From Candidatus Bathyarchaeota archaeon (GTDB taxonomy: Archaea; Thermoproteota; Bathyarchaeia; Bathyarchaeales; Bathycorpusculaceae): a stretch of DNA of 64,000 nucleotides. Positions within the stretch are counted from its first letter, which is position 1, and each line of letters opens with the position of its first letter. Made by a program: the position numbers and the translations under genes. The DNA lies in the NCBI GenBank assembly GCA_963767735.1, contig CAVYES010000002.1, positions 96,001-160,000 of the forward strand. Reading direction: 5' to 3'. This document shows positions 934 to 62,863 of this stretch, piece by piece. The notes under the pieces were generated by a model. The model was not told the origin of the DNA and did not search any database. It saw nothing but the letters and a program-made list of their open reading frames with translations.

Positions 934-3900
934 TTATGGCTTTTTTCTTAGTAAGAGCAAGCCTACTATGGCGATTGCGATTATTATTGCGATTACTGCA
1001 ACTGCGATTCCAATAGTTAAGCCTGTCATTGTTGCTAGGCCTGATGCAGGTGTAGGTGTAGGTGCGGCTGTAGCGGAAGGTCCTTGTACGACCATGTTGG
1101 TTTCAGAACTTGATCCCCAATAACCGTTGGTGCCTGCGAAAGTAGCGGTGACACTGTAGGTGCCTGGGACATCTGGAGGAGTCCAAGTAAAGTGGAACAT
1201 GCCGTGTGCATCGGTTGTTGCGCTGCCGAGGGTGACGAAGTTGCCGTTAGGATCCGTAGCGGTTAACGTTACAGTAACGCCTGTGAAATTAGTTGGTTCC
1301 GGCTGCTGATCGTAAACGTACGCCATCCAAAAAGGCATGCTTGCGTCAGACGCGGCTGGAACGCCACCTGGGAAGTCAGCTTTCACTGTTGATAGCTGTG
1401 AGCCAGCTGAAGTATCCATAACTGTGCCTTGTATAGCTACACTGGTGAGTGCGGTGATAGAAGTCTGTGGTGCTTCTACTGTCGTTGCGCTGGGTCCTCT
1501 GCCTATACTGTAAATCATGTTGTTATAGCCGTTCATGCACGCTATGTATCCGTTTGCGGCGACAAATGCGCTACCAGGAGTAGACCACTCGCTTGGATAA
1601 TCTGAAAGTGTCCATAATTGTTGTCCTGTGGTAGCATTAATAGCGGTTATCACTGCGCCCTTGTAAATCGGGTTGTTGATAGTGTGCTCGGAAGTAGCTA
1701 GGTAAACGACTCCGCCAGCAATGGTTTGGATGCAGGTTGGATAATCACCATAATCCACGTTATAGCCAGCGTAAGTAGTGTTACCTTCTCCGCCGTTGCC
1801 GTAAGTCCACAATAGTTTTCCAGTGACATCATTCATGCAGTAGGTTATTCCTCCGAATTGACTGCTGTATATGTTGCCGTAAGCACATACACTGAGCATA
1901 GTGTTGCCGAGGCCATAGTAGTCCCAGTCGTTTTGAGGTGCAGTTGTCCATAGATAGTCGCCTGTTGTCAGACTGTATCCTGCCCAGTTAAGAGTTTCCT
2001 CATAATTGAAGTAGAAGATACGGGTCTGCCAGTCGACTGCGCCGAATGCCATAGTTAGGTTGCCTGCTGGCGGGTTATATGTCTGCATCCAAAGTATTGA
2101 GCCGATTGGACCCACAGTTGCGTTGAGGTTGACAAGTTCCAATGTGTATGGAAGTTGTGGGTAGCCTGTGCTTGTTCCTTTGAAACCTGTAGGCAGGGTG
2201 CCGTTTTCGCAAAGCATTGCGTCGCCGTAGTCAGTTGCGAGTACCCTTGTTGGACATACTCCAGGCGATAAGTTAACATTTCCGCCCTCTGCAAGGTAGC
2301 CTACAGCGGTTCCTTGTTCATATGCAGGTATTAGATTTGCTGAGACAACAGGGTTATAAGTGGCCTGCAAAGGCATGGTGTTTAGCCAGGGTATTGAAAC
2401 GTTCCAATCATACTTTCCTGACGGATTAGCTGAGGATATAGCTTCACCTTGCGCGATAGTAGTGCTTGCATCAGCTATGATTGTGGAACCATACGGGATA
2501 AAGACGCTTGCTCCACTTGGAGCGGTACCTGTTTCGCCTATGATTGGAATTGGTAGTGTTGGAACCATCCAGCCGTTGCTTGCATTCATGACTGATGGTG
2601 AATAACTCCCTCCGCCTGTGTATGGGTTAATGTCGTATTCAAATATTTTAGACATGTTCCACTCAGCCAAATACCAGTTCGGATTCGCGGCCGTGCCGTC
2701 GTTCATAAAGACGTCTCTTATTACTTCACCGCTTGGACCCATGGTTTGCCCGTATGTGAGAGCTACTGCAATCTGGCCATTTATCGTCTCGGGTATAAGT
2801 GATGGAGGCTGACCCGGAGCTAGTACTGTTAGGACTGATGGTGCTGCAAAGCCTGGAACACCGGTTATGTTGAACAGTACGTCCCCTGTGTATGCATCAA
2901 AGCACTCCCACATCGATGGCAAACCTGTAAGTCCGCCTCCGATAGCTGCAACTAGTATTGGGGGATAGGTTCCGTGCTGGTCAGGATCCCATAGGTTGTA
3001 TATGTAAGCGAATGACAGCGGCGGTACAGTGGTGCTACTCCAAAGCTGTTGCCCTGTTTGAAGGTTAACGCAGACGGTTGGTCCACTGCTTGGACCCGTG
3101 AATGATACTGTTTGAGTGTAGAATAGGTATCCGTTTATTATTATCGGATTGCTGAATCTTGGCTGGTATGAAGAACCCTCGTAGTACTGGACTCCTGCGC
3201 CGTTGCTTGGATCAGAACCGCCAGCTGGAAAGTAGTTTCCTCCGACAGTTCCTCCGAATTGAAGCGGCGTCTCCCACATGATATGGCCAGTGAGAGGTCC
3301 TACGTTATCTCCATGGTATAATGTTGAGCTAGTATAGCCTTCTAGAACTGGTGTACCTGTTCCTAGCCAGTTTGACGAAATCGTGTACCAATTAGAGTTT
3401 TCACCGTATATTGGGTTGCTCCAGTAATTTGTCGGTAGCGGCTCGCCGGTTATTGCGCCAGCGATTGGTGTTGACTGCACAGTAAGCGTTGTTGATGCAC
3501 TGCTTGGCAGATAAGTATCGTTAACCAATACTGAGCCAGAGTAACCGTCGCCATTCGCACCATAAACTTGCCCTGGATAACTAAAGGTGATATTATATGT
3601 GCCGACTTGGTTTGGAGTATAGGTTATGTACAGTGATGAAGTTGGATCTTGGTCAACAGCGAAAGTCTGTGTTGAGACTGCACCATTAGGCGCCGTAATG
3701 GTAATCTTGTAGTTATCGAATCGGTAGTCATTTGCTAGCAATGCTGCGGAGGTTGTGTAAGCGTTCCCTATAACAGCCTCAGATGCTCCACCAGCAGCTC
3801 CGTAAACGGGGGCAAGCCAACAGTAAATGAGATCGGACTGACCGACACCTACAAGATGTGGTGCAGCTTCGATGTATGCATATGTTGGAATTTGCCACGC

Positions 3901-4008
3901 AGGAGTGTGTGCACTAGCGTTTGGCAGTAATGCTATTGAACCTCCAATTGAAATTGTTAAAATTGCTGCAATCAAAATAGCCATAGTTTTACCTTTTAGA
4001 TTTTGCAT
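934..4008 (-). CDS. Large cell-surface PQQ-like beta-propeller repeat protein with signal peptide and C-terminal TM anchor
   Basis: N-terminal signal peptide; repeated A/C-x-N/D-x-x-T-G-x-x-L-W motifs (NLQTGQQLW, NDVTGKLLW, NATTGQQLW); Ig-like C-terminal region, P/T linker, TM helix ending RKKP. Confidence 0.8.
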   Translation of the reverse strand: MQNLKGKTMAILIAAILTISIGGSIALLPNASAHTPAWQIPTYAYIEAAPHLVGVGQSDLIYCWLAPVYGAAGGASEAVIGNAYTTSAALLANDYRFDNYKITITAPNGAVSTQTFAVDQDPTSSLYITYTPNQVGTYNITFSYPGQVYGANGDGYSGSVLVNDTYLPSSASTTLTVQSTPIAGAITGEPLPTNYWSNPIYGENSNWYTISSNWLGTGTPVLEGYTSSTLYHGDNVGPLTGHIMWETPLQFGGTVGGNYFPAGGSDPSNGAGVQYYEGSSYQPRFSNPIIINGYLFYTQTVSFTGPSSGPTVCVNLQTGQQLWSSTTVPPLSFAYIYNLWDPDQHGTYPPILVAAIGGGLTGLPSMWECFDAYTGDVLFNITGVPGFAAPSVLTVLAPGQPPSLIPETINGQIAVALTYGQTMGPSGEVIRDVFMNDGTAANPNWYLAEWNMSKIFEYDINPYTGGGSYSPSVMNASNGWMVPTLPIPIIGETGTAPSGASVFIPYGSTIIADASTTIAQGEAISSANPSGKYDWNVSIPWLNTMPLQATYNPVVSANLIPAYEQGTAVGYLAEGGNVNLSPGVCPTRVLATDYGDAMLCENGTLPTGFKGTSTGYPQLPYTLELVNLNATVGPIGSILWMQTYNPPAGNLTMAFGAVDWQTRIFYFNYEETLNWAGYSLTTGDYLWTTAPQNDWDYYGLGNTMLSVCAYGNIYSSQFGGITYCMNDVTGKLLWTYGNGGEGNTTYAGYNVDYGDYPTCIQTIAGGVVYLATSEHTINNPIYKGAVITAINATTGQQLWTLSDYPSEWSTPGSAFVAANGYIACMNGYNNMIYSIGRGPSATTVEAPQTSITALTSVAIQGTVMDTSAGSQLSTVKADFPGGVPAASDASMPFWMAYVYDQQPEPTNFTGVTVTLTATDPNGNFVTLGSATTDAHGMFHFTWTPPDVPGTYSVTATFAGTNGYWGSSSETNMVVQGPSATAAPTPTPASGLATMTGLTIGIAVAVIAIIIAIAIVGLLLLRKKP

Positions 4009-4465
4009 TTTTCTTTTCCTTCCATTTTATTTTCATTGAGCGAAAAGCAACATACATACTCTCGTATGCAAATTCTCCCGCCCATAGAATCTCGTTAGTC
4101 ATAGCGCCTTATAAAACTTTGCAAAAACCATCTTTCTTTTTAGCGATGAATATAAAGATTGCTGAAGATAAATGGTGGAAAAAACGAGAAAAAAGGGAAA
4201 AACACTTAACCTTCGAGATAAATTTAAAAAAAGAGTGTTGTTTGAAGTTTCGGCTCTAACTTTACCAGTCTACTAAACTAAAGTCAAGCAACTGGAATGA
4301 CAGGCTGTGTCTTGACAAACAAAATGACGTTAAACGGAGCTTAGATGCATTTCGATTAGAAGCAAAAAGATTCCTAAATTTATTGTACCTGTAAACACGA
4401 ACCTATGGTATAAGCTTTTATACGAATGTTGAGGTGAGACTTAACAGTTAAATGGTTAGAGCTCT

Positions 4466-5317
4466 ATGAACAAACTTGGCGGCTTCATTCGGTTAATGCG
4501 ACCTGTCAACTGTGTCATGATGGGTTTCGCTGTGCTTGTAGGGGCAGTTCTCGCCAGCTCCCAATTTGGTGGACTTAACTGGCTTAGCATCACGTTCGGT
4601 TTCTTAACGGGCTTCACTTTTTGTGCTGCAGCCATGGTTATTAACGATTATTATGACCGCGGTATTGACGCAATCAATGAGCCATCACGCCCAATTCCAA
4701 GCGGTTTGGTGAAAACGCGTGAAGCTTTGGCTTTTGTTGCTGTGCTTTCTGCAGTGGGTTTCTTTTTCGCTTTTAAAGTAAGCGTCGTATGTTTTGCTGT
4801 GGCGGCGGCATCTCTTGTTATAACTGCAACGTATCTTACTGTAGGCAAGCGAAGCGGTTTACCTGGAAATTTTTTGGTCAGCATCTGCGTTGCTATCCCC
4901 TTCCTTTACGGCAGCATAGTTGCTTTCGGTTTTGTCAAGTTTGATGTGGTGTTGTTTGCATCTATGGCTTTTCTATCAAACACAGGCAGAGAAATCACAA
5001 AAGGAATCGTTGACGTTAAAGGCGACAACGCAAAAGGGGTGAAAACTTTAGCAGTCCGCTATGGCGAAAAAAAGGCTGCGATTGCAGCCACAGCTTTTTA
5101 CATTACGGCAGTGGCTTTGACGCCCGTTACTTGGCTTTTAGGTTTGGTATCAATCTGGTTTGTGCCGTTCGTTCTGGTTACGGACTGTGGGCTTGTAGCC
5201 TCTTCAGTGCTTTTACTAAGAGACTATTCACGTGACAATTCTAGGCGAATAAAAAATACGGTTCTTTTATGGTTCATTTTTGGATTGTTAGCATACATTT
5301 TTGGCACTTTCAAGTGA
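4466..5317 (+). CDS. UbiA-family prenyltransferase, probable digeranylgeranylglyceryl phosphate (DGGGP) synthase
   Basis: LMRPVN start, NDYYDRGIDAINEPSRPIPSG and REITKGIVDVKGD motifs, multiple TM helices. Confidence 0.88.
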   Translation: MNKLGGFIRLMRPVNCVMMGFAVLVGAVLASSQFGGLNWLSITFGFLTGFTFCAAAMVINDYYDRGIDAINEPSRPIPSGLVKTREALAFVAVLSAVGFFFAFKVSVVCFAVAAASLVITATYLTVGKRSGLPGNFLVSICVAIPFLYGSIVAFGFVKFDVVLFASMAFLSNTGREITKGIVDVKGDNAKGVKTLAVRYGEKKAAIAATAFYITAVALTPVTWLLGLVSIWFVPFVLVTDCGLVASSVLLLRDYSRDNSRRIKNTVLLWFIFGLLAYIFGTFK

Positions 5318-5731
5318 AAACCGATTTTTTGGTGACAATCACCCGCGCACAATTCCACTTTTTTCTTTTTTTGTTTTTGGAGCGAGCCTTCCAATATTTT
5401 TGGGTTAACGCCGATAAGGTTAAGTGAAAACTGTCTTCCTTGCTTGTGGATGATTGCAGCAACCGGCACAAGAAATGCTGGAATAAATTTATGAGAACGC
5501 GGAGCGACCAAGCAAGTTTAAAAAGCATAAACCTGAAAAATTCAATACTTTAACAAATAGGTAACATCTAATTAACAGAAAATAGAAAAAGCAGTAAATT
5601 AATAATTTTTAGGTATTCGCAACTAAAAACTTTCAAACATAAAATTTTCAGTATTTCTTAAGACGCACATTTACTAAAATATTTAATTTAAAATTTATTA
5701 TCAGTTAACATACCTAAAGAGTTAACCTAAA

Positions 5732-5953
5732 ATGGCAATCCAGAAAACTACAAGTGAAATTCGGCAACTTCTAATCAATGCAAAGTTAGATTTTGAGTCA
5801 ATACAGAATAAGGCATTGAACGATTATCTTCCAAAAATACTTCATATCTGCCCATTTATAGATGAACCATGCGCAACAAAACAATGCGTAGAATGTGAAG
5901 TCTTCACCAACAGCACAAACAAACGAAACTTAAAGGGGAAGCAAAAAACCTGA
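5732..5953 (+). CDS. Small Cys-rich hypothetical protein
   Basis: 73-aa ORF with CPF-x4-C-x4-C-x2-C, preceded by an AT-rich promoter-like region. Confidence 0.6.
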   Translation: MAIQKTTSEIRQLLINAKLDFESIQNKALNDYLPKILHICPFIDEPCATKQCVECEVFTNSTNKRNLKGKQKT

Positions 5954-6040
5954 GCTTGCGCTCAAAGGACAAAAAGATAAGTTGTTGCTTGCCGAGCTCA
6001 CCCTTATGCATGCTTGAACATTAATGCCCCTATTGCTTTT

Positions 6041-6202
6041 CTAAGGAATTTCAGGAATCATATCTCTTCTGCTTTTTGGTTCAACTATTGAACGATATCT
6101 TCCACAATACAGATAGGGACCAGAAATGCAGGTTTTGGCGTCAGCCTTATAGAGTGTACAAACCTTACGTTTGGGACAGCCGCCAAAGTTATGAAATAAC
6201 AT
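6041..6202 (-). CDS. Small Cys-rich hypothetical protein
   Basis: MLFHNFGGCPKRKVCTLY...TCISGPYLYCGRYR; four Cys; convergent with the 5732 ORF. Confidence 0.5.
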   Translation of the reverse strand: MLFHNFGGCPKRKVCTLYKADAKTCISGPYLYCGRYRSIVEPKSRRDMIPEIP

Positions 6203-6421
6203 TTGCTTATATGATTTCAAAATCGTGCATCCCAAGCATTCTTAACCTTAATTGAAACATTACGTTCTGGGTTCTTAAGGCATATTTCGATAATTGAAAT
6301 ATGCCGACCGAAATCGGCAAAAACTCGCAAAAACTTGCTGCTATTTTGAACATATATACGTGCATGTTAGCAACAATTAAATCCCTCGTATGTTGAATCA
6401 ACCATTAAAGAGGATGTTAAC

Positions 6422-7075
6422 ATGTCTGAAAATTTCGCTAAAAAATGGGAACCTAAAAGAGAAGAAGAATCGTTCAGCACCTCAATTCGCAACACAGTTA
6501 CGCGGCCGCCACCACTAAAGACAGCTTTAGATGCAGCTGTTAGAAAACTCGACTTGCAAATCAACAAGTTAGACCAAGCTAACGAACGTTTCACAGAGAA
6601 AGACAAGTCTCTGTTCGCTAAATTAGTAAATGCTTACACGCAACATGATACGGCGCACGCTAACATTTATGCTACTGAACTAGCTGAAATACGAAAAATG
6701 TCAAAGCTTATCATGAACGCAAGACTTGCACTAGACCAAGTATCGCTACGCATAAAGACAGTAACCGAACTGGGCGATGTTGTTACTGCACTGGGACCAT
6801 GCATCGGAGTAATACGCAGTGTCAGCGGGGGACTATGCGGTGTTTTACCAGAAGCCGAAAATGAGCTGAGCGGCATCGGTGATATGCTGAGCGGTTTAAT
6901 GTTTGAAGCAGGAACAAGCAGCGGAATGTCATTAAACTTCAACTCTGTAAACGAGGACGCAGCAAAAATCCTTGATGAAGCAGCAATTGTTGCAGAACAG
7001 AGAGTTAGCTCGAACTTCCCCGATTTACCTCCTGGAATGCCATCTGGTGCAGCAAACAACAAAACGAGAACTTAA
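6422..7075 (+). CDS. Snf7/ESCRT-III family protein (CdvB paralog)
   Basis: Helical protein with ANIYATELAEIRK...LDQVSLRIKTVTELGDVV and EDAAKILDEAAIVAE, and a proline-rich FPDLP tail; typical of TACK CdvB paralogs. Confidence 0.85.
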   Translation: MSENFAKKWEPKREEESFSTSIRNTVTRPPPLKTALDAAVRKLDLQINKLDQANERFTEKDKSLFAKLVNAYTQHDTAHANIYATELAEIRKMSKLIMNARLALDQVSLRIKTVTELGDVVTALGPCIGVIRSVSGGLCGVLPEAENELSGIGDMLSGLMFEAGTSSGMSLNFNSVNEDAAKILDEAAIVAEQRVSSNFPDLPPGMPSGAANNKTRT

Positions 7076-7089
7076 ATCAAGCTAAGTAT

Positions 7090-7125
7090 CTTCTTCCTTA
7101 GCCTCTTCTTTTTTCTTATTTTTAA
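7090..7125 (+). terminator. Oligo-T/pyrimidine tract, putative archaeal intrinsic terminator
   Basis: cttcttccttagcctcttcttttttcttattttt directly after the cdvB-like stop codon. Confidence 0.45.
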
Positions 7126-7212
7126 CTACAATTTAAACAATCTGATCTTTGTTCTTGTAATTTTTAAGTAAGTATTCATGGATAATAAATCTTAAATCTG
7201 CATAGCAAAATA

Positions 7213-7452
7213 ATGCCAAACAATGGTGAAACACTGGACATGAATAATAAAACCTTCGCCTTGTTCATGTTGCTTGTGGGTTTAGCCCTCTCAGTTGCAG
7301 GGGTTGGAATTGCGATATCTTCAATGAACCAAGCGATAGACAGCCCTTTCAATACAAATGTTAACAGCACTTGGAATACTGAAACAGTCGCTATTGTGAT
7401 GGCAATAGTTGGAATTATTATGGTTCTTTATGGAATATTGATTCTTTTTTAG
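7213..7452 (+). CDS. Small two-TM membrane protein
   Basis: Two hydrophobic segments separated by a polar loop. Confidence 0.65.
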   Translation: MPNNGETLDMNNKTFALFMLLVGLALSVAGVGIAISSMNQAIDSPFNTNVNSTWNTETVAIVMAIVGIIMVLYGILILF

Positions 7453-7473
7453 AAGCCAAGAAGCGCGGCGCGC

Positions 7474-7750
7474 TTATGCTGGTTCTATGGTGACTTCCAT
7501 AATGCACCTTTCAAGGCTTGGCTTATCGCGCTTCAACAAGGTCAGTGTCAAATCTGGAATACGTATTCGCCCATTTTTTTGCATTTTAGCTAGAAAACTC
7601 TCCCTAACGCCCAGAAAACCAACGATGGTAACTGTAACTTTTAAGGTCTCAGACGATCCAACTTGAATCATGGCGTACCAACCTGGGCATTTGCAGACGA
7701 CCTGCTTTCTGCAGCTTCGTTTTGAAACTTACTGTTTGGCTCAAAGGCAA
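7474..7750 (-). pseudogene. Frameshifted tandem AbrB/MraZ-like (swapped-hairpin) DNA-binding protein
   Basis: TTG at 7750 gives MPLSQTVSFKTKLQKAGRLQMPRLVR; a different frame continues ...SETLKVTV...ESFLAKMQKNGRIRIPDL. Two AbrB-like K-x-Q-K-x-G-R-x-x-x-P repeats lie in different frames. Confidence 0.6.
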
Positions 7751-7986
7751 CTTAAACAGTCCTCCTCTGCAGGATACTTCACGGACGCGAAAATATTTTC
7801 TTATCCTTCTGTTTCCCTACTTGTCCTTCCATGTCCTTTCCCGTACGCAACCTGCAAACGATTTAAGCTTTGCTTCAAAAAAGCAACCCAAAACGCAAAG
7901 AACAAAATTCTGCGGAAATATTTCGCTCTTATTTTTATCCACTAATGTAAAAGCGTTTAATTATTCTTGTTTATGGAAAAGTCATC

Positions 7987-8565
7987 TTATCTTTTTTCTG
8001 GCGGCTTCTCCCATAGTTCAAGCTTCTGTTTCTTTAGCTCGGTTCTCTTTTTCTGCAAATAGTTGTACATTGTGTGGTGCTGGCAACCTTCAATAATCAT
8101 TTGCACCGCGTTATGTGCTGTGTCAACCTGTTCGAAACTGCCGATAAGCCCGACAGTGTGACCATACACAACTACGTCAGCCTCAGTTAACTCTTCAATT
8201 AGCTTTCTTGTTTTACCGTCGGCACCGATTATTCTTCCTTTTATCCGTTTAATGTCAGATTCTGATCGGCCAAAAATGACGCGCAAATCTATCATGTCAA
8301 AGATTTCGTCTTCGTTGCGAATCAGGCGGAATGCTACTTCAGGAGTAAAGCCTCTGCCGATGGCTGTGGCAACATCTTTTGCTTTTAGCAGCAAGGATGG
8401 GTCAGTTGCTTTTTCTGAGAGCGTAAGGGTGACGTTTCCGTCGCTGTCAACGTCCAGTTTCACCTGAAGCTTCTCTTCAATATACTGCTTAACTTTGCCT
8501 TCGGGACCAATAAGTATCCCAACGCGCTCTTTTGGAATCCTAACAAACGTGTCTAATCCAACCAT
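7987..8565 (-). CDS. KH-domain rRNA-processing protein (Dim2/Pno1 family)
   Basis: Two KH GxxG loops (LIGPEG, IIGADG) and AIGRGF; conserved downstream of RIO1. Confidence 0.92.
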   Translation of the reverse strand: MVGLDTFVRIPKERVGILIGPEGKVKQYIEEKLQVKLDVDSDGNVTLTLSEKATDPSLLLKAKDVATAIGRGFTPEVAFRLIRNEDEIFDMIDLRVIFGRSESDIKRIKGRIIGADGKTRKLIEELTEADVVVYGHTVGLIGSFEQVDTAHNAVQMIIEGCQHHTMYNYLQKKRTELKKQKLELWEKPPEKR

Positions 8566-8567
8566 TT

Positions 8568-9350
8568 TTAACCCACAACCATCTTATGCAACTTTTCAAG
8601 GGGATAAACTTTTACGTTTAACCGACTAAAGAACCTATTCAAATTCGTTAAATCCCTTGTCAGCATGAAATCAGCCATCGGATGTTCGATGGAAACGGAC
8701 TGGGACATGTCAAAAACCACTATTTTGCCTTTCCAAATCATAATGTTATATTCGCTTAAGTCACCGTGAACAAGTTTGGCTTTCTTGTAGAGGCGCTTTA
8801 CATAAGTAACTAGTAAGCGGTAGGTTCGCACGGGGTTAGTTGGAGGCCGCTCTTTGAGTGATGGCGCGCTAACGCCGTCTTTCCCGATGAACTCCATGAC
8901 TACCACGTTGCTTTTGACAGCAAGGGGTTTGGGAACAGGAACCTTTGCTTCCGTGGCTTCCTTTAAATTGCGAAACTCCTTCGCTGCCCAAACAGCAATC
9001 AGCGATCGCGTGTCACGTTTAATGTTTTTGAAGCGAGGGTCCCCTTCAATGTATTTTAGCATACCCTTCTTGAACTCAGCAGATGAGGTTAAGTAAATTT
9101 TCACCGCTAAATCTTTGCCTCCCTTGTCCGTACCCCAGTACACGCGTGCTTCCTTGCCTGAACTAACAACCCCATTGAGCTCATAGAAAACCCCACTGTT
9201 TAGCATGTCAAAAACAACCATGCGCGTGGTTTGGTCAAAAACCTCCTCCACGGTGGCACGCTCCTTTGTCATATCATGTGTAAGCATTTTGTCTCTCCGT
9301 TCCACTCGCCTTTCGGTATGGGCAAGGCGTTCTTGAGCTTTCCTAGACAT
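8568..9350 (-). CDS. rio1: RIO1-family serine/threonine kinase
   Basis: SSGKEARVY, AVKIY, LVHGDLSEYNI, FDMSQSV motifs; start re-set to MSRKAQ at 9350. Confidence 0.93.
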   Translation of the reverse strand: MSRKAQERLAHTERRVERRDKMLTHDMTKERATVEEVFDQTTRMVVFDMLNSGVFYELNGVVSSGKEARVYWGTDKGGKDLAVKIYLTSSAEFKKGMLKYIEGDPRFKNIKRDTRSLIAVWAAKEFRNLKEATEAKVPVPKPLAVKSNVVVMEFIGKDGVSAPSLKERPPTNPVRTYRLLVTYVKRLYKKAKLVHGDLSEYNIMIWKGKIVVFDMSQSVSIEHPMADFMLTRDLTNLNRFFSRLNVKVYPLEKLHKMVVG

Positions 9351-9496
9351 AATATCAATCATGTTAACTGCTTCAGGATATTTAAAAGCATCAACCAAGA
9401 AAAAAGAATATTATAGTTGAATTAAAAAAATTAGAAAACGACGAGGCACGTCGCTGTTGAAGGGCTAAAATGAATATTAAGATTAAATTTTGAAGA

Positions 9497-56436: not shown

Positions 56437-57210
56437 ATGTACTCTCAATATGCGGTTGAGCTCAAAAATGTGACAAAACGCTACAACGAAATAGTGGCGG
56501 TAAAGAATTTTAATCTAACAATAAGTACAGGTGAAATTTTCGGGCTTTTGGGGCCCAACGGTTCTGGAAAATCAACTACACTTAAAATGCTGCTTGGTTT
56601 AGTTACACCTGATGAGGGAAGCGTTAACGTGCTGGGATTAGATGCGTTAAAGCAGCCTGTGGAGGTTAAGCGCCTCGTGGGGTACGTTCCTGAATCAGCT
56701 AACCTTTACGAGTTTCTAACTGGAATAGAATACTTGGATTTCATAGCAGACATCTACGGTGTCCCGACAGAAGAGAAGAAACAGCGGATAACCGAGTACC
56801 TTAAAGCGCTGCAGCTTGAAGGCAGAGAAGGCGACATGATAAACAGTTACTCGGACGGCATGAAAAAGAAAATTAGCCTTATCTCAGCGTTTATTCACAA
56901 GCCCAAGCTTCTGATTCTTGATGAGCCGCTAAACGCATTGGATCCTCGTTCCGCAAGAATAGTTAAGGAATTTCTATATGAACTAAAAAACCAGGGCGTA
57001 ACCACCATAATGTCAACCCATGTGCTTGAAATAGCCGAGGCGATTTGTGATCGAATTGGCATAATGTATCAAGGGCAACTTTTAGCATTGGGCAACATGG
57101 ATGAACTGAGAAAAACAGCCCGCATGCCAGGCTCAGATTTAGAGGATGTTTTCCTTAAGTTGACTGGTACTGAAGATTTGAGAGCTGTCGTTGAGGAACT
57201 AATGAAATGA
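56437..57210 (+). CDS. ABC ATPase
   Basis: GPNGSGKST, YSDGMKKK, LILDEP. Confidence 0.92.
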   Translation: MYSQYAVELKNVTKRYNEIVAVKNFNLTISTGEIFGLLGPNGSGKSTTLKMLLGLVTPDEGSVNVLGLDALKQPVEVKRLVGYVPESANLYEFLTGIEYLDFIADIYGVPTEEKKQRITEYLKALQLEGREGDMINSYSDGMKKKISLISAFIHKPKLLILDEPLNALDPRSARIVKEFLYELKNQGVTTIMSTHVLEIAEAICDRIGIMYQGQLLALGNMDELRKTARMPGSDLEDVFLKLTGTEDLRAVVEELMK

Positions 57211-58883
57211 ACTGGAAAAACGTCCTCTACCTGCTTCAGGTTGAACGCAAATCTGGCAGGTTAATTAGGGGAATTAAAGCCACCCATTACAGGGAAAACA
57301 GTTTCATTGCCTATTGGCCCTATTGGGTAGCGGCAATTCTAGGCGTTATTGGCGGTCTGGGGGCGTCATTAATTGTGTCAGCAACTTATTCAAGCGGAGC
57401 AGTTAAAGGCTTACCGCCTTTGAATGTCACGGCACTTAGCTTTTTCTCTGTGTTACCGACTCTTGTTTTAGGTATCAGCATAGTGTTTACGTTTTTCCAG
57501 CAAATACAGTTAGCAGGAAAAGCTTCTAGCCAAGTGATGTATTGGCTGCCAGTAACTTGGGAAGAGCACACTTTGGCTTCAATATTGGCTAGCTTGTCAG
57601 GGTGGCCCGCTGCCGTTGTTGTGGGCTTAAGCTCTGGGCTGATTGCCTTTTCGGCTTTGAACGGACTAATTCTTCAAGCGCTACTGACAATTCTCATTCT
57701 GATTGCAGCCGCTTTCTTAGCTAGCTCGATAACAGAAATTGTAAGAGTTATACAAGTGCGTTTCACAGGCGCCGTCTACAAATCAAGCGGAAGAGCAGCC
57801 ATATGGTTGCGACTCGTAGGCTCGCTACTGATTATCGCAATATTCTACATCATCTATTTCTACGTGATCTCTGGAGCTAACACTATAATCACAGGCTTAT
57901 CTGCCGCGCAGAACAGAGCGTGGTATGTGCCTTTTGTTTGGCTGCCCCTGATACTGTCATACGTTACCAAAGGTTTGTTCTTGCAGAGTCTCCTGTTCGC
58001 TGCTTTATCCGCCGCCCTCATCGCTGGGCTGTATTACCTTGCCGTCGACCTCAACAAGCGCTTCGGACTTTACGAACCACCAGCAATAACGGTTCAAAAA
58101 AGCGGCTTTTATTCCCCAAAAACTGGAATTCTAGGTAAGCTCGGCTTCTCCACTGCTGAAGCAGCTTTAATTCGAAAGGATCTAAGGGCGTTTACTAGGC
58201 GCCGGGAGCTGTTAGGCACATACTTTATGCCTATTATCATAGTTATAATTTCAATTTTCTACTCATTGGGCATAAACAGTGGCTCATCCGGATCCTCAAC
58301 CATTTCAATTTGGTCTGGCGTCATTTTTCTGGTGCCTGCCAGCGGCATGGCTTCGCTGTTAGGGCAAGTTTTGATTGGCGAGGAAGGGCAAGTAATGTGG
58401 CGAATTTACGCCTCTCCAATTTCAGCCAAGAACTTGGTAAAAAGCAAGTTTTTCTTAACTATAATCTTTTCAGTCATTATTTTACTGATAACGGGGTTCA
58501 TAGGCATAGTAGTTTTCCATCCAAGCCTACGAAAGACGGTTATAGCCATGGTCGAAGCTCTCTTAATTGCAGTGGCGGTGGCGTCGGTTTCGCTGCAAAT
58601 CGGTTTTAGAGGCCCAGACTTTTCAGGAACAAGAAGAGCAAGAATGATTCGTCAGGAATGGTCACTGATAGGCACAGTTGCTTCCGCTCTTACAGGAGCA
58701 GCAGTTTTTGCACCAGTGTTTGCACAATACGGATTAGCCCTACTTTCCGGCACATCCGTCAGCACATTAAACTACACAATCGGCGTACTCATAAGCGCTG
58801 CAATTTCCATAGCAATCACCGCAATCTTCTATCAGGCAAACCTCGCCAGTGCACGAGAACTATTGAGAAAAGCCGAAGTTTAA
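57207..58883 (+). CDS. ABC-2-type multi-pass permease
   Basis: About 12-14 TM helices, WLPV and ASPIS motifs; coupled to the ATPase. Confidence 0.8.
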   Translation: MNWKNVLYLLQVERKSGRLIRGIKATHYRENSFIAYWPYWVAAILGVIGGLGASLIVSATYSSGAVKGLPPLNVTALSFFSVLPTLVLGISIVFTFFQQIQLAGKASSQVMYWLPVTWEEHTLASILASLSGWPAAVVVGLSSGLIAFSALNGLILQALLTILILIAAAFLASSITEIVRVIQVRFTGAVYKSSGRAAIWLRLVGSLLIIAIFYIIYFYVISGANTIITGLSAAQNRAWYVPFVWLPLILSYVTKGLFLQSLLFAALSAALIAGLYYLAVDLNKRFGLYEPPAITVQKSGFYSPKTGILGKLGFSTAEAALIRKDLRAFTRRRELLGTYFMPIIIVIISIFYSLGINSGSSGSSTISIWSGVIFLVPASGMASLLGQVLIGEEGQVMWRIYASPISAKNLVKSKFFLTIIFSVIILLITGFIGIVVFHPSLRKTVIAMVEALLIAVAVASVSLQIGFRGPDFSGTRRARMIRQEWSLIGTVASALTGAAVFAPVFAQYGLALLSGTSVSTLNYTIGVLISAAISIAITAIFYQANLASARELLRKAEV

Positions 58884-58915
58884 GCGCCCTGCATTCCCTC
58901 AAGTTCAAAAGAAAG

Positions 58916-59448
58916 ATGAGAACCTTCCAAAGCGTTCGGACAAAAGGAAAAGGTAAGCCTTGGCAGTTTGAAAATGCCTACGGGACTTCGTCTTTGCGAT
59001 CTATTCTGCACATTCAGGCTTTGATTGATGATTTTCAAGTTGACATGGCTAAAATCATGAAGATTTACACCAAGCCCATGCTTGTGCTCCAATGCGGCGT
59101 TTATGAAACACAACTGTTCTCATTGATTTTGCGTGGTGATTTTCCTGACAGCTCGATTATTCTAGATAAGATTCCTAAGATTAAATGGAGGCCGATTTGG
59201 GAGCCGCCTACAGACGTTAAAATGATCGTGTTATCGACCTCTAAAATAACATGATGACGGGCGACCTGGAAGCGCGTGCCGAACTTGGCATGCCGGAAAC
59301 CATTAAAGGCAACTTAAAGGCGCAGCCCACGCAACCGCAAGAACCTGTGCAGACTCAGCAGTCTTCCGCTGACCGTCTTAACATACTGCAAGAACCACAA
59401 ACCCAAAAGGCATGCGCTCAGAAAGTGGGAGGCAAGAATGAGCGATGA
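58916..59448 (+). pseudogene. Degraded viral portal protein (internally deleted and frameshifted)
   Basis: NAYGTSSLRSIL, IPKIKWRPIWEP and, in the next frame, LEARAELGMPE resemble the YGxS, PxxxWxP and EARxxLG segments of Caudoviricetes portals. Confidence 0.55.
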
Positions 59449-59510
59449 CGCTGGTTATCGTGTATCGTTAATAGAAAAGAAGAAAACGCGCAGCGCGCGT
59501 CTAATTGAAA

Positions 59511-60734
59511 TCAGGGGGAGTTAGCGTCGATTTTTTCGACTTTTTTCCTACCAATTGAAACGGCATATAAGGTCACAACTACCATTGCTGCAGCCATTAA
59601 AACGAGCGCTATACTGCTGAATTCAGGTACTGTTGGGGATGGGGAAGCAGTCACAGTTGAGGTTGCTGAGGGGGACGAAGTTGGAGTTGCAGTAGCAGAC
59701 GAACTAGATATTACTGAGACTGTGCTGTCGCCAGCATTAGTCACGAATATCTCGCCCTTGCCAGAATCATAAGCCACGCCAAAGGCACCTCCTCCCACAG
59801 TCACGGTTGAAACCACAGCATTGGTGCTGTCAGATATAACTGAGACCGTTCCGTCGACTGTGTTGGCTACGAAGATCTGGCCCGTGCTAGAGTCATAAGC
59901 TAAGTCTTCTGGAGTGTTTCCCACAGGCACGGTTGCAACCACCGCGTTGGTGGTGTCCGATATAACCGTGACATTGTTTACGCCAGCATGGGTTACGAAT
60001 ATTTCGCCTTTTCCAGAATCATAAGCTACACCAAAAGCAACGCCTGCTTGTGGGGGGAATTCCGTGGTTATATTTGCAACTACGGCATTGGTGCTGTCAG
60101 ATATAACATCGACCGCGTCATAACCTTGAATGGCCACGTATATATCGCCTGTGCCGGAATCATAAGCCACGCCCTGTGGCCAGTCATCAATTGTTCCTTC
60201 CGTCTGTACGGGTATGGTGGCAACCACAGTATTGGTGTTGTCCGATATGACCGACATGTCAGGGGGGGTGTCGCCCGTATTGGACACGAATATCTCACCT
60301 TTGCTGGGATCATAAGCTATGCCTCCGGGATCGGTTCCCACGGTTATGTTTGCAACCACCGTATTGGTGCTGTCTGATATAACCGAGACTGTGCCGAGTG
60401 TCGTTTGGGCGTTACCATTGGCTACGAATATCTCGCCTTTGACAGAATCATAAGCTAAAGCATAGGGGGCGTATCTCATGGGCACGGTTGCAATCACAGC
60501 GTTAGTCTTGTCAGATATAACCGAGACCGTGTCGGAGCCCGCATTAGTTACGAATACTTCGCCTTTGCCAGAATCATAAACTGCGCCATAATCATAAGGA
60601 TTATCAGTGCCTGCGGTACCCACTGGTATCGTGGCGATTACAGAGAGACCATAGACCGAATGGGCAATTGACAAAGCAAAAACTGCAATGAGTATTAAAC
60701 TTAAAAGTTTCCAAACTTTAGCTTTCATAAACAT
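59511..60734 (-). CDS. YncE/YVTN beta-propeller surface protein with PEF-CTERM-like sorting signal
   Basis: Seven AYDSGKGEIFVTN...VSVISD.TN.VVAT repeats; S/T/P linker; VPEF + TM + RKK. Confidence 0.9.
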   Translation of the reverse strand: MFMKAKVWKLLSLILIAVFALSIAHSVYGLSVIATIPVGTAGTDNPYDYGAVYDSGKGEVFVTNAGSDTVSVISDKTNAVIATVPMRYAPYALAYDSVKGEIFVANGNAQTTLGTVSVISDSTNTVVANITVGTDPGGIAYDPSKGEIFVSNTGDTPPDMSVISDNTNTVVATIPVQTEGTIDDWPQGVAYDSGTGDIYVAIQGYDAVDVISDSTNAVVANITTEFPPQAGVAFGVAYDSGKGEIFVTHAGVNNVTVISDTTNAVVATVPVGNTPEDLAYDSSTGQIFVANTVDGTVSVISDSTNAVVSTVTVGGGAFGVAYDSGKGEIFVTNAGDSTVSVISSSSATATPTSSPSATSTVTASPSPTVPEFSSIALVLMAAAMVVVTLYAVSIGRKKVEKIDANSP

Positions 60735-60895
60735 TCCTCAACTTTGAGTTCTAAATCAAGCATGTTTAACATAAATTGTCTATTCATGCATAATTCCCTT
60801 CATAAAAGGTCAAGTATTCTCTGATGAAGTTAAAAGCTTTTGCATGGTCTCTCTTGCATCATGTTTAACTAATTTGTGGCCCTGCTGAAGATTAG

Positions 60896-61081
60896 TTAAA
60901 AATAATTCGTCCTGAAAAAAACGATGATTTTGGCGGCAACACTTACGAGCTTGAGGATACCGATGATTTACTGGATATTTTCTCATACGGGGTATTTGTC
61001 GCAGAGGACACTTTCGCTTGTAACGTTCACCCGAATTGCGCATGTTACAGTGTTAAGCAATCAGATTATCAAAAAAGTTAG
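60896..61081 (+). pseudogene. Fragment of a viral head morphogenesis (Mu gpF/SPP1 gp7-like) protein
   Basis: Startless open frame ...DDFGGNTYELEDTDDLLDIFSYGVFVAEDTFACNVHPNCACYSV*; contains the HPNCxC motif. Confidence 0.6.
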
Positions 61082-61100
61082 AGAAAAGCGGTAGCGTGTT

Positions 61101-61592
61101 CTATACTGTTTCTTTTGTAACGTTTGCTGTAGACGACTTTTCTTTTTGCCTCTCTTGGGAATTTTGGTTTAATGCGTATCCAACAGCGAGACCGGCAAGC
61201 CCAACGCAAAACGACATCCAAAAGATGGATAGTGTCCCTTGGATCACGAACGAGTAGAGAATATTCATGTTAGATCCAGCGGGAGTTATGAACAGATTCG
61301 CAAACGGCCCAAAACCAATAAAGTATCCTACTACACTCCCAAGCAGCAAGGAAATTAGTACAGCTTTGAGATTTGTAGCTATATCAGTTCTTTTCCCGAG
61401 CCAGTAGAAAGTGATGAAAAGAACCAATGGAACAACGGTTATAACTCCGTCAAGGAACTTGAGCCAATTTGTAAGAGCTTGGAAACCACTTGCGTTAGTG
61501 TGAACTTGCAAATACTGACTATAGCCGAATAGAAAACCAATGATCAGGGAGAAAACAAGAACTCCGCCAAATATCCTCCAGTTGAAATTCAT
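61101..61592 (-). CDS. Hypothetical four-TM membrane protein
   Basis: Four hydrophobic helices; GGTGA RBS-like site upstream. Confidence 0.75.
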   Translation of the reverse strand: MNFNWRIFGGVLVFSLIIGFLFGYSQYLQVHTNASGFQALTNWLKFLDGVITVVPLVLFITFYWLGKRTDIATNLKAVLISLLLGSVVGYFIGFGPFANLFITPAGSNMNILYSFVIQGTLSIFWMSFCVGLAGLAVGYALNQNSQERQKEKSSTANVTKETV

Positions 61593-61697
61593 GTCCTAAT
61601 CACCAACATTGCTTTCTGTTGAATTTCTTAATAAAATTTTGCTACTGTCACAAAGGCTGCGCTTATGGCTTAACCAAAACTATGAACTAACCCGAAT

Positions 61698-62362
61698 TTG
61701 GAGAAAACAAAAACTATGGAACTAGACTACGACGTAGACGTCAAGGCTAGTCTTGATGACCTAAGGAAAACAGGCATCATTGAAGGTCAAGCGATTGACT
61801 CTTCAGTTAATAAGAATCGTTGGCAGGTTCCGGACGAGGACTTGGATTATTTTGCTTATCACTTAAGGATGCACAGGTTCGGATTAATCACGGCGAAAAA
61901 GTTGGAACCATTAAGGGTTTAGTCACTAAGACTAAACGTTTGGGCGATTCTGTCTTTTTTGAAGCTGAAGTATCCGGCGACCCGTTGCTTTTGACGCAGA
62001 TTGAAAAGAACCATTTGCGCATGGTTAGCCCGAAAGTGGGTTCGGATAACATCGTTTGTAGTCTGTGCCAGGGTAAGATCAGGGATGCTAACATGGCAAT
62101 GGTTCACCTATGCGCGGGTGCCTGGGAGATTGTGCATAAACCTCGTTGTGTCGAGCTAAGCATCGTTGCGGAGGGAGCGTATGAAAATAATCTTTTTCAT
62201 TTGAAAGGGTTCGCGGCGGCTATGGACGAATCACAGCACAAAGCACTGATTGCTTCCATCTGCGAATGCACGGATAAGGCGAAGTGCCCTTGCGGAATTA
62301 AGTCGCTAAAGTCACAGGTACGGTCCGACCATCACGGACTTAACCAACAGAAAAAGATCTAA
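61698..62362 (+). pseudogene. Frameshifted HK97-type prohead protease
   Basis: IIEGQAIDSSVNKNRWQV, then frameshift near 61858 to VRINHG...VFFEAEV...RMVSP...CSLC...HLC...ELSIVAEGAYEN. Confidence 0.7.
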
Positions 62363-62422
62363 AATTTCAACCGTGACAACTTTTATCTAGCAGAGGCAAC
62401 ATTTGTTTTTTGGTGACGTTTT

Positions 62423-62863
62423 ATGAAAGATTTATCAATAAAGAGCCCGGCGTTTGAACACAATAAGCTTATTCCTAAAAAATACACTTGCGACGGACTA
62501 AGTATCAATCCCGCCCTAACTATCGAGGGCATTCCTGAGGAAGCGAAAACGCTTGTTCTAATAGTTGATGACCCTGATGCGCCAAGTGGCACGTTTGATC
62601 ACTGGGTTGTCTGGAACATTCCCGCCTCAACGGGTAAGATAGGTGAAAACTCAGTGCCGGGAATGGAAGGTATGAACGGGGCAAGACAAATGGGGTATTT
62701 TGGTCCCTGCCCAACGTCGGGCACGCATAGATATTTCTTTAAGGTTTACGCTTTGGACACAGAACTCGGTTTAGGAGTCGGCTCAAAAAAGAAAGATGTT
62801 GAAAAAGCCATACAAGGCCATATTCTTGCCAAGGGCGAATTAATCGGACTCTATAGTCGGTAA
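62423..62863 (+). CDS. YbhB/YbcL (PEBP) family protein
   Basis: YTCDG, DDPDAP, HWVVWNI, GPCP..G.HRYFFKVYALD. Confidence 0.93.
   Translation: MKDLSIKSPAFEHNKLIPKKYTCDGLSINPALTIEGIPEEAKTLVLIVDDPDAPSGTFDHWVVWNIPASTGKIGENSVPGMEGMNGARQMGYFGPCPTSGTHRYFFKVYALDTELGLGVGSKKKDVEKAIQGHILAKGELIGLYSR

Follow-up and report, generated by a model that had tools for sequence, protein, structure and literature searches.

Defective prophages of bacteria, also called 'cryptic' or 'grounded' prophages, are textbook cases of viral genomes that have been reduced by deletion and have kept their morons or lysogenic-conversion genes. Morons carry their own promoters, often lie on the strand opposite to the late operon, and stay intact while the structural genes are lost. 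Here we describe a locus of about 3.5 kb in a 64,000-nucleotide (nt) stretch of a Candidatus Bathyarchaeota archaeon genome. The whole stretch is called the window throughout; it lies on contig C2 of genome G000, and C4, C5, C6, C7 and C8 are other contigs of the same genome. On the plus strand the locus holds broken pieces of three genes of a tailed-virus head module and, between them on the minus strand, two intact genes. We consider it very probable that the locus is a deletion-reduced tailed-virus provirus in the spacer between a permease gene and a PEBP-family gene, with two cargo genes kept intact. As a kind it is familiar, a defective provirus keeping its morons, here in a little-studied archaeal virus group.

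The tailed viruses and proviruses described from Bathyarchaeia (Fuxiviridae, Kunpengviridae and BATPV) are Caudoviricetes with HK97-type capsid, portal, terminase and tail genes, and some of them encode integrases and occur as proviruses (PMC10848311, PMC11705971). In the portions of these two reports that were available, decayed remnants, a protease-scaffold protein and surface-protein cargo are not mentioned; 'protease' is absent from the main text of PMC10848311, and 'remnant' and 'moron' are absent from the available text of PMC11705971. Literature linking 'YVTN' with 'provirus' was not found, nor was any for 'PEF-CTERM' with 'virus' with either term in title or abstract.

Results

Broken head genes on the plus strand

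The original prediction had read three plus-strand fragments of the locus as remnants of portal, head-morphogenesis and prohead-protease genes, and all three were found within a few bases of where it had placed them (Table 1). The listing of open reading frames (ORFs) and a three-frame translation gave plus-strand ORFs of 198 and 65 amino acids (aa) at 58658-59448, a stop-to-stop piece at 60896-61081 that contains the HPNCAC stretch, and two overlapping ORFs in different frames at 61698-62362. In tblastn searches each of the three fragments matched one of three neighbouring genes of another element in this genome (C4:150-168.5 kb), at 61-85% protein identity. With these intact paralogs serving as a bridge, the portal, head-morphogenesis and prohead-protease assignments hold.

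Three pieces of the 488-aa portal protein are present: residues ∼210-254 at 58958-59098, residues 358-401 at 59093-59224 (84% identity) and residues 403-463 at 59227-59400 (66%), the latter two with a joint E-value of 4e-38. To the left of 58958 the first high-scoring pair was a poor extension; in DNA alignments positions 58993-59095 hardly differed from the C4 copy. The portal gene lacks its N-terminal ∼210 and C-terminal ∼25 codons, and homology fades at ∼59400. Internally, the portal gene has an in-frame 315-nt deletion at 59095/59096, both edges of which are bordered by GGCG in the intact C4 copy, and a 1-nt deletion near 59224. The MuF-like head-morphogenesis gene lacks its first 49 codons, and the family's upstream cysteines C48 and C51 are lost or altered. 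In the protease gene, codons 1-48 matched at 61716-61859 and codons 50-214 at 61862-62356 (85%, E = 1e-99). The DNA is colinear with the C4 copy over 61711-62348 at 86% nucleotide identity, and host-like sequence begins at ∼62350. A 1-nt deletion near 61859 shifts codons 50-∼214 into the next frame, the gene is cut off after residue ∼214, and the scaffold half (residues ∼215-356) is deleted; the window has no complete protease ORF. The gap between the MuF-like and protease genes measures 623 nt in the window, where a gene for a four-segment membrane protein fills it, as compared with 25 nt in the C4 copy.

A check of the frameshifts in sequencing reads had been proposed, and both sites recur in public-run contigs. 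Short contigs from two other studies cover them with 0 differences (X1, 59185-59335; X2, 61791-62073), and the junction of the four-segment and protease genes is matched exactly by an X5 contig (61571-61805). The 315-nt deletion and the outer junctions are bridged by none of the public-run contigs listed; these data are low-depth contigs from other studies, no run held half of the sampled words, and some stretches, 58600-59010 among them, were without cover and are uninformative. One X2 contig continues past 59099 into sequence resembling the undeleted portal and is taken to be a relative's copy.

A lineage-specific insertion between two host genes

Orthologues of the permease gene that flanks the locus on the left were present in 51 of the 61 genomes of the genus searched, and the spacer was examined in the six best of them (68-78% identity). 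The gap between the permease and PEBP genes is 148-940 nt in these six closest relatives versus 3540 nt in the window, and none of the six has a viral, YVTN or four-segment gene in it. The 3.5-kb block is therefore a lineage-specific insertion, and to this extent the decayed provirus of the original prediction stands as an insertion of viral head genes that all six relatives lack. On the right, the conserved promoter-like region of the PEBP gene picks up again at ∼62350-62375. The gene that follows PEBP (62956-64164) is also present in five relatives; G050 is without it, and the G044 sequence reaches only that far.

In the relatives the spacer contains a conserved small ORF (L039, L040, L042, L043), 62-66 aa long in three of the six and 50 aa in a fourth, with the sequence ...GTIFRRKDNRYLLYLPVRVVDDSMFPLKCN... 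This ORF is missing at the G000 site and has no good match elsewhere in G000. Searches of contig C2 by tblastn with proteins of the C4 and C8 elements gave no terminase, capsid or tail matches, in line with the predicted lack of a terminase and a major capsid protein. No C4-element protein other than the portal, the MuF-like protein and the 356-aa protease protein matched C2.

An intact sister element and two divergent head-protein families

The 180-aa piece of the protease was searched in the window genome and 40 relatives, and 7 of the 41 genomes gave matches. The other copies in the window genome (C4:160443-160958, 85% identity; C8:259409-259921, 71%) lie inside open frames of 361 and 373 aa. 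The C4 copy belongs to a tailed-virus structural module of 18 kb that looks intact and lies on the minus strand (C4:150017-168540, L010). The module runs from terminase to tape measure, and 24 of its ORFs were scanned against Pfam and PHROGs. The terminase large subunit (phrog_2, E = 4.8e-36; Pfam Terminase_6N, 2.9e-11, and 6C, 7e-6) is followed directly by the portal (phrog_9232, 2.9e-14). The 104-aa protein gave weak head-morphogenesis matches (phrog_4728, 2.7e-4; phrog_595, 1.4e-3; phrog_1657, 5.1e-3). A 156-aa protein is listed between the 356-aa protein and the capsid protein (PF25209, 9.1e-8; phrog_1650, 9.5e-9), and the tail genes include an HK97-gp10-like tail completion gene (phrog_5, 1.6e-15) and a tape-measure-like gene (phrog_991, 3.6e-11). 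Two opposite-strand inserts are present in the module, a NosD-like secreted gene between the portal and MuF-like genes and a gene for a 284-aa helix-turn-helix (HTH) protein between two tail genes. No integrase was found within 38 kb of the element.

Beside the C4 element, at C4:170399-171058, tblastn also located a repeat consisting of an AbrB-like 92-aa ORF and its neighbour, which recurs at window positions 7480-7950 and at four other places on C2 and may be a small mobile or regulatory cassette. Kinship of the relatives' small spacer ORF with this AbrB-like ORF was considered and ruled out, no relationship being found.

Of the 8000 candidates scored against the 356-aa protein, at least 155 are homologues at E ≤ 0.001. 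Precomputed Pfam domains are absent from all 120 of those listed, and one of these is attributed by its source to a Bathyarchaeota archaeon. An alignment of 42 homologues (alignment A1) contains a conserved N-terminal domain of ∼180 aa, with H64 in at least 90% and S110 in all sequences, and a variable helical C-terminal half. A conserved C120-x2-C123 ... H136-x-C138 cluster within the protease domain is possibly a metal site. The AlphaFold2 (AF2) model of the intact paralog (P0001) has a mean predicted local distance difference test score (pLDDT) of 65.5, with blocks of 78-96 over residues 21-170 except for one at 69; over residues ∼30-170 most blocks exceed 85. Foldseek comparison of this model with the PDB gave 15 matches at E ≤ 0.001, and all those listed are herpesvirus assemblins or T4 gp21; the best is the Kaposi's sarcoma-associated herpesvirus (KSHV) protease (3.5e-5), and T4 gp21 is matched as well (5jbl_A, 8.4e-4, root-mean-square deviation 4.0 over 153 columns). 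Deviations are large in most rows because of the disordered C-terminal half of the model. The BFVD comparison yielded 247 matches at E ≤ 0.001 with a top value of 9.6e-14, and many of these proteins bear the name prohead protease. Matches by sequence of the protease or its profile to PDB entries were at chance level (glutamate racemase, E = 0.015; adhesin and proteasome subunits, E > 1) and were discarded. On the predicted fold, the gene position and the conserved His and Ser, we accept the 356-aa protein as a putative protease-scaffold fusion. The candidate catalytic residues H64 and S110 are kept in the window copy; the assemblin-like fold was seen on the intact paralog and not on the broken copy.

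The loci yielded 33 distinct homologues of the MuF-like family, of which 24 went into an alignment (A2). C51, H87, C90 and C92 are invariant, within a C-x2-C ... HPNC-x-C motif.

Cargo positions within the head module

Relatives of the protease are encoded on 185 IMG/VR contigs, of which ±7 kb each was examined. The 80 contigs kept show the order terminase-portal-(MuF)-protease-capsid, the same canonical head-gene order that had been read from the window fragments. A gap of at least 700 nt separates the portal and MuF genes in 4 of the 34 contigs in which both genes were detected. In three of these, which are near-identical (L054, L055, L060), the slot holds an opposite-strand gene for a 176-aa YVTN protein (TIGR02276, E = 2.9e-23) whose C-terminus consists of PTVPEF, a hydrophobic stretch and basic residues, and in L057 an opposite-strand gene for a 323-aa secreted repeat protein. 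A further contig, L058, has no detectable MuF gene and encodes a 212-aa secreted protein in the gap between portal and protease. In the C4 element the portal-MuF slot is filled by the opposite-strand NosD-like gene (488 aa), which overlaps the portal 3' end.

A second remnant in the window genome (C4:493984-496112, C4-B) has opposite-strand genes in both slots; there the end of a portal gene is followed by a gene for a 251-aa protein (opposite), an intact MuF gene, a gene for a 155-aa membrane-anchored protein (opposite) and a truncated protease gene. The 251-aa protein has a linker rich in Pro and Thr and shares a homologous C-terminus with the NosD-like protein. Among the IMG/VR contigs the gap between MuF and protease is at least 600 nt in 15 of 35, and in L056 it contains an opposite-strand gene for a membrane protein that is a homologue of the 155-aa protein of the second remnant. 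An opposite-strand membrane gene in this slot was seen only in the near clade of L056, C4-B and the window. Thus opposite-strand genes do occupy the same slots in related elements, a comparison that had been proposed at the outset: the portal-MuF slot in the C4 element, the second remnant and five IMG/VR contigs (three of them with YVTN/PEF-type genes), and the MuF-protease slot in the second remnant and one IMG/VR contig. The two slots are real cargo positions of the virus lineage.

The two minus-strand genes

The two minus-strand genes between the fragments, predicted to be intact, are both open over their full length. The 407-aa protein matched TIGR02276 (E = 5.8e-36, over the cut-off), a 7-bladed YncE model (4.6e-18, below the cut-off) and Pfam NHL and YNCE. 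A signal-like segment forms its N-terminus, a Pro/Thr/Ser linker is present, and the C-terminus, as read by eye, is PTVPEF followed by hydrophobic and basic residues; no PEF-CTERM model of NCBIfam matched it at E ≤ 0.01. This PEF-type tail would be a C-terminal anchor signal. The genome contains one exosortase/archaeosortase-family gene (C8:164721-165485; PF09721, 33.8 bits, over the cut-off). A virus-borne clade of YVTN proteins was considered and found to be unsupported, the window gene being closest to chromosomal paralogues and virus-linked and chromosomal copies intermixing; the YVTN repeats make a tree unreliable, and none was built.

The 163-aa protein had no match in Pfam, PHROG or NCBIfam and is represented by only 10 clusters in a collection of 5.8 billion proteins. 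An A/T-rich TATA-like box lies ∼40 nt upstream of its gene, as judged by eye. Among 80 other genomes of the genus the gene has one strong match, in G084 (63% in protein, 82% in DNA, with a stop), and this copy also adjoins a MuF fragment, in a different arrangement. The orientation of the cargo genes suggests that they are transcribed separately.

Age and mode of decay

The protease piece keeps 35 of the 36 invariant columns that it covers and all 24 near-invariant columns; the single invariant change is Y105 to H. Relative to the C4 copy the synonymous divergence (dS) is 0.58 and the ratio of non-synonymous to synonymous divergence (dN/dS) is 0.10. Pairwise comparisons with four intact relatives gave dN/dS values of 0.09-0.11 at dS 0.58-1.01, and pairs of intact copies with finite dS gave 0.04-0.23. 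The window copy represents a separate recent integration, from a strain unlike that of the C4 element, and not a copy of C4. The wreck is thus young, recently disabled and shaped by a handful of deletions, and the words 'fossil' and 'eroded' in the original prediction overstate its age, since 35 of 36 invariant columns and a dN/dS of ∼0.10 have been retained. Changes unique to the window protease comprise 13 synonymous and 10 non-synonymous (7/5, 8/0, 18/7 and 9/4 in the intact copies). Relaxed selection on the window branch was considered and is unsupported by these counts, 13/10 being not clearly unlike the intact copies.

Elements in other states of preservation were seen in sister genomes. 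In G003 (C1:582001-602000, L013) the terminase and portal genes of a sister element are each split into two frames and a MuF gene is absent, and the protease-scaffold and capsid genes are intact; this element represents an intermediate stage of decay. Another decayed remnant lies at 2300-9396 of G019:C81 (L019), with a 1030-aa YVTN protein (minus strand), unrelated genes, a 76-aa MuF piece, two small minus-strand ORFs, a second MuF fragment and the first ∼92 codons of the protease, in that order.

YVTN genes and viral stumps across the genome

G000 contains 12 clusters of structural-protein matches and 16 YVTN loci, of which 9 have no viral match within 10 kb. Five of the 16 have viral stumps at a distance of no more than 700 bp (the window, C6:123k, C6:551k, C7:308k and C8:266k), as against a chance expectation of ∼0.3 of 16, estimated by hand from summed cluster lengths. 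Outside the window these are YVTN/PEF-type genes beside tail stumps: those at C6:122973-124408 and C7:307672-309543 sit between stumps of tail genes p140 and p151 of the same virus family, that at C8:265878-267496 follows p140 at the contig end, and that at C6:551334-553190 is separated from a p151 stump by 637 bp. An intact-looking module of G084 (L135) also has a YVTN gene in this same tail slot. A p140 fragment is adjoined by a YVTN gene in G091 (L159) and by a short YVTN piece in G018 (L153); in other copies the tail slot contains an HTH gene or nothing. Integrase matches are found beside three other clusters (C7:306222; C5:109004, broken; C5:588923). The C7 match is a 410-aa integrase-like ORF (C7:306222-306680) ∼1 kb from the YVTN gene.

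Table 1. Features of the locus and its host flanks, in window coordinates.
Feature	Position	Strand	Evidence or remark
ABC-2 type permease gene, host, left flank	57207..58883	+	ORF, stop codon intact; 68-78% orthologues directly upstream of PEBP gene in 6/6 relatives
Spacer, 74 nt, between permease stop and first portal homology	58884..58957	.	no match seen to relatives' spacers or virus
Portal remnant, three pieces	58958..59400	+	tblastn, DNA alignments
Secreted YVTN/YncE-type beta-propeller protein, intact, 407 aa	59511..60734	-	TIGR02276, Pfam; portal-MuF slot
MuF-like head-morphogenesis protein, C-terminal 55 codons (aa 50-104 of 104)	60914..61078	+	tblastn against C4 paralog, 82%, E 1e-28; has HPNCAC
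Small membrane protein, intact, 163 aa, about four hydrophobic segments	61101..61592	-	ORF; MuF-protease slot
Putative prohead protease domain of protease-scaffold fusion	61716..62348	+	tblastn, DNA alignments to C4 copy
PEBP-family gene, host, right flank	62423..62863	+	Pfam PF01161, E 4.9e-39; beside permease in 6/6 relatives

Discussion

The arrangement at this locus would result if a temperate tailed virus had integrated between the ABC permease and PEBP genes and a few deletions had then removed almost all of it. The virus would belong to a lineage that is common in this archaeal genus, itself probably one of Bathyarchaeia. To the left of mid-portal the terminase and regulators would have been lost, and to the right of the protease domain the scaffold, capsid, neck and tail; further losses would be 315 nt within the portal gene, its end and, along with that end, the beginning of the MuF-like gene. 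The survivors would be the two opposite-strand cargo genes and the stumps of the head genes directly flanking them. Such stumps could not build anything. The cargo genes would be the working parts, read from their own promoters opposite to the late operon, an arrangement that would let prophage cargo be expressed in the lysogen. Selection on the cargo may have shaped which deletions survived, and the cargo, if expressed, may change the cell surface.

A number of results weigh against a provirus that kept viral cargo. The fragments by themselves gave nothing significant in Pfam or PHROGs, the best PHROG matches being phrog_1657 (head morphogenesis, E = 0.23) for the HPNCAC piece and phrog_20585 (unknown function, E = 0.019) for the protease piece. 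The lack of profile similarity, which the original prediction had named as refuting it, is thus formally what was observed for these two libraries, and the identity of the fragments rests on the intact paralogs; these families lie too far from those libraries to be recognised. The intact 356-aa protein likewise had no family match among Pfam, PHROGs, NCBIfam and PDB sequences, and the intact 104-aa protein had none in Pfam at E ≤ 0.1. The AF2 model of the latter (mean pLDDT 78) gave 0 fold matches at E ≤ 0.001 in BFVD, the best being at 0.039; in the top 50, 23 of 29 named proteins are minor capsid, head-morphogenesis or MuF-like proteins. With PHROG matches of 2.7e-4 to 5e-3, the MuF assignment is consistent but weak and not proven. 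Counts of unique changes do not clearly separate the window branch from the intact protease copies. In more distant contigs the MuF-protease slot holds mainly same-strand small ORFs, the four-segment gene was not found in any intact virus, and no close copy of the window YVTN gene was found in the viral contigs, the gene of L054 being 35% identical over 164 residues. One contig of 255 nt from a metatranscriptome (RNA) library matches 60536-60790 exactly, which is the beginning of the YVTN gene with 56 nt ahead of it. This weak hint of transcription may reflect a transcript from a TATA-like box, read by eye near 60825-60840, or else DNA carry-over. At the locus itself no tRNA target was found, none of the 16 PF00589 integrase matches of the genome is on C2, in line with the absence of an integrase noted in the original prediction, and no attachment (att) repeat was seen in the junction sequences, in which no dedicated repeat search was run. 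Because integrase, att repeat and tRNA target are all lacking here, integration of a whole virus at this site is something that we infer.

The same lack of integrase, att repeat or other viral remnant on C2 would suit an alternative in which no whole virus was ever present and a piece of provirus of ∼3.4 kb was moved or copied into the spacer by illegitimate or ectopic recombination. The 12 related viral gene clusters of the genome are possible donors, and the absence of the relatives' 62-66-aa spacer ORF would fit a replacement. However, the nearest protease copy in the genome is at dS 0.58, which leaves no donor in the assembly, and the 315-nt deletion edged by GGCG and the truncated outer ends fit stepwise deletion of a longer element; we regard such a transfer as improbable. 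We judge it similarly unlikely that the provirus died first and that the two minus-strand genes are host genes, inserted or recombined later and never viral cargo. The window YVTN protein is indeed most like chromosomal paralogues without viral neighbours (C4:316k, 50%; C2:251k, 48%; C5:349k, 46%), more than half of the YVTN loci of the genome are remote from viral matches, and where the YVTN gene sits, the portal end and the first 49 MuF codons have been lost. Yet neither gene is at the site in the six relatives examined, and the one strong match of the four-segment gene in the genus, in G084, adjoins a MuF fragment. Two independent arrivals in a 3.4-kb wreck, each exactly in a known cargo slot, would also be unparsimonious. 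The original prediction had left open whether the genes were cargo or later inserted. Genes for secreted or membrane proteins lie on the opposite strand in these slots in bona fide viral contigs and the C4 element (portal-MuF), in L056 (MuF-protease) and in the second remnant; the evidence therefore favours cargo, and later insertion is the less likely of the two.

The state of the protease piece bears on a further alternative, that it is alive and that its 180-aa ORF (61820-62362), which has its own TTG start, encodes a domesticated protease acting, for example, on other resident viruses. H64, S110, the Cys/His cluster and 35 of 36 invariant columns are kept, and dN/dS to intact relatives is ∼0.10, a low pairwise value that is nevertheless expected of any recently broken gene. 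A different frame holds the first ∼48 residues of the fold, 9 invariant columns among them, Y105, otherwise invariant, has become H, and the scaffold and C-terminal part are gone. Similar truncated pieces (G019:C81, G022:C8 and C4:495816-496112) are plainly decaying, and a living protease here would be very surprising. Taken together, a deletion-reduced provirus that has kept two cargo genes best accounts for the locus.

The locus provides a worked archaeal example of provirus decay and cargo retention in a hard-to-culture lineage mostly known from metagenomes, and both an empty site and an intact sister element are available for comparison, as are related free viral contigs. Curated libraries miss a large putative capsid protease-scaffold family (at least 155 protein clusters, 185 IMG/VR contigs), and such remnants, probably also whole proviruses, are therefore under-called in these genomes. 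Surface propellers of host-like type recur in antisense slots of these viruses, which points to a part of viruses in shaping the surface of archaeal cells; these slots, together with the repeated retention of the propellers, are the part worth following. As a tentative proposal, about which we remain rather more doubtful than convinced, a widespread tailed-virus lineage of this genus may have fixed antisense cargo slots in its head and tail modules, shuttling YVTN/PEF-type surface proteins and small membrane proteins; hosts would delete the virus and keep the cargo, and a sizeable share of the surface-propeller paralogues would have been delivered by viruses. If this is true, provirus wreckage would be a main route of envelope diversification in these archaea.

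The 356-aa protein resembles HK97 gp4, T4 gp21 and the assemblins in its predicted fold, in having a conserved His and then Ser, candidate catalytic residues, in the expected order, in its gene position between portal and capsid, and in a C-terminal helical scaffold-like extension such as protease-scaffold fusions have. It differs from them in lacking a sequence-profile match and in the inserted conserved C-x2-C ... H-x-C cluster, which to our knowledge is unusual among such capsid proteases. Like the genes for Mu gpF and SPP1 gp7, the MuF-like gene directly follows the portal, and its product has weak PHROG head-morphogenesis matches and a C-x2-C ... HPNC-x-C motif, which we take to be typical of MuF. 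Unlike them, it is only ∼100 aa long, a bare domain.

With the tailed viruses of Bathyarchaeia the likeness is one of gene content, as judged from their descriptions. The bacterial defective prophages are likewise integrated tailed viruses that have been reduced by deletion and whose accessory genes are intact. The window element differs from these in its archaeal host, in its cargo of a YVTN propeller with an archaeal PEF-type sorting tail, and in the position of this cargo, which lies inside the head module, between portal, MuF and protease, and not at the usual module ends.

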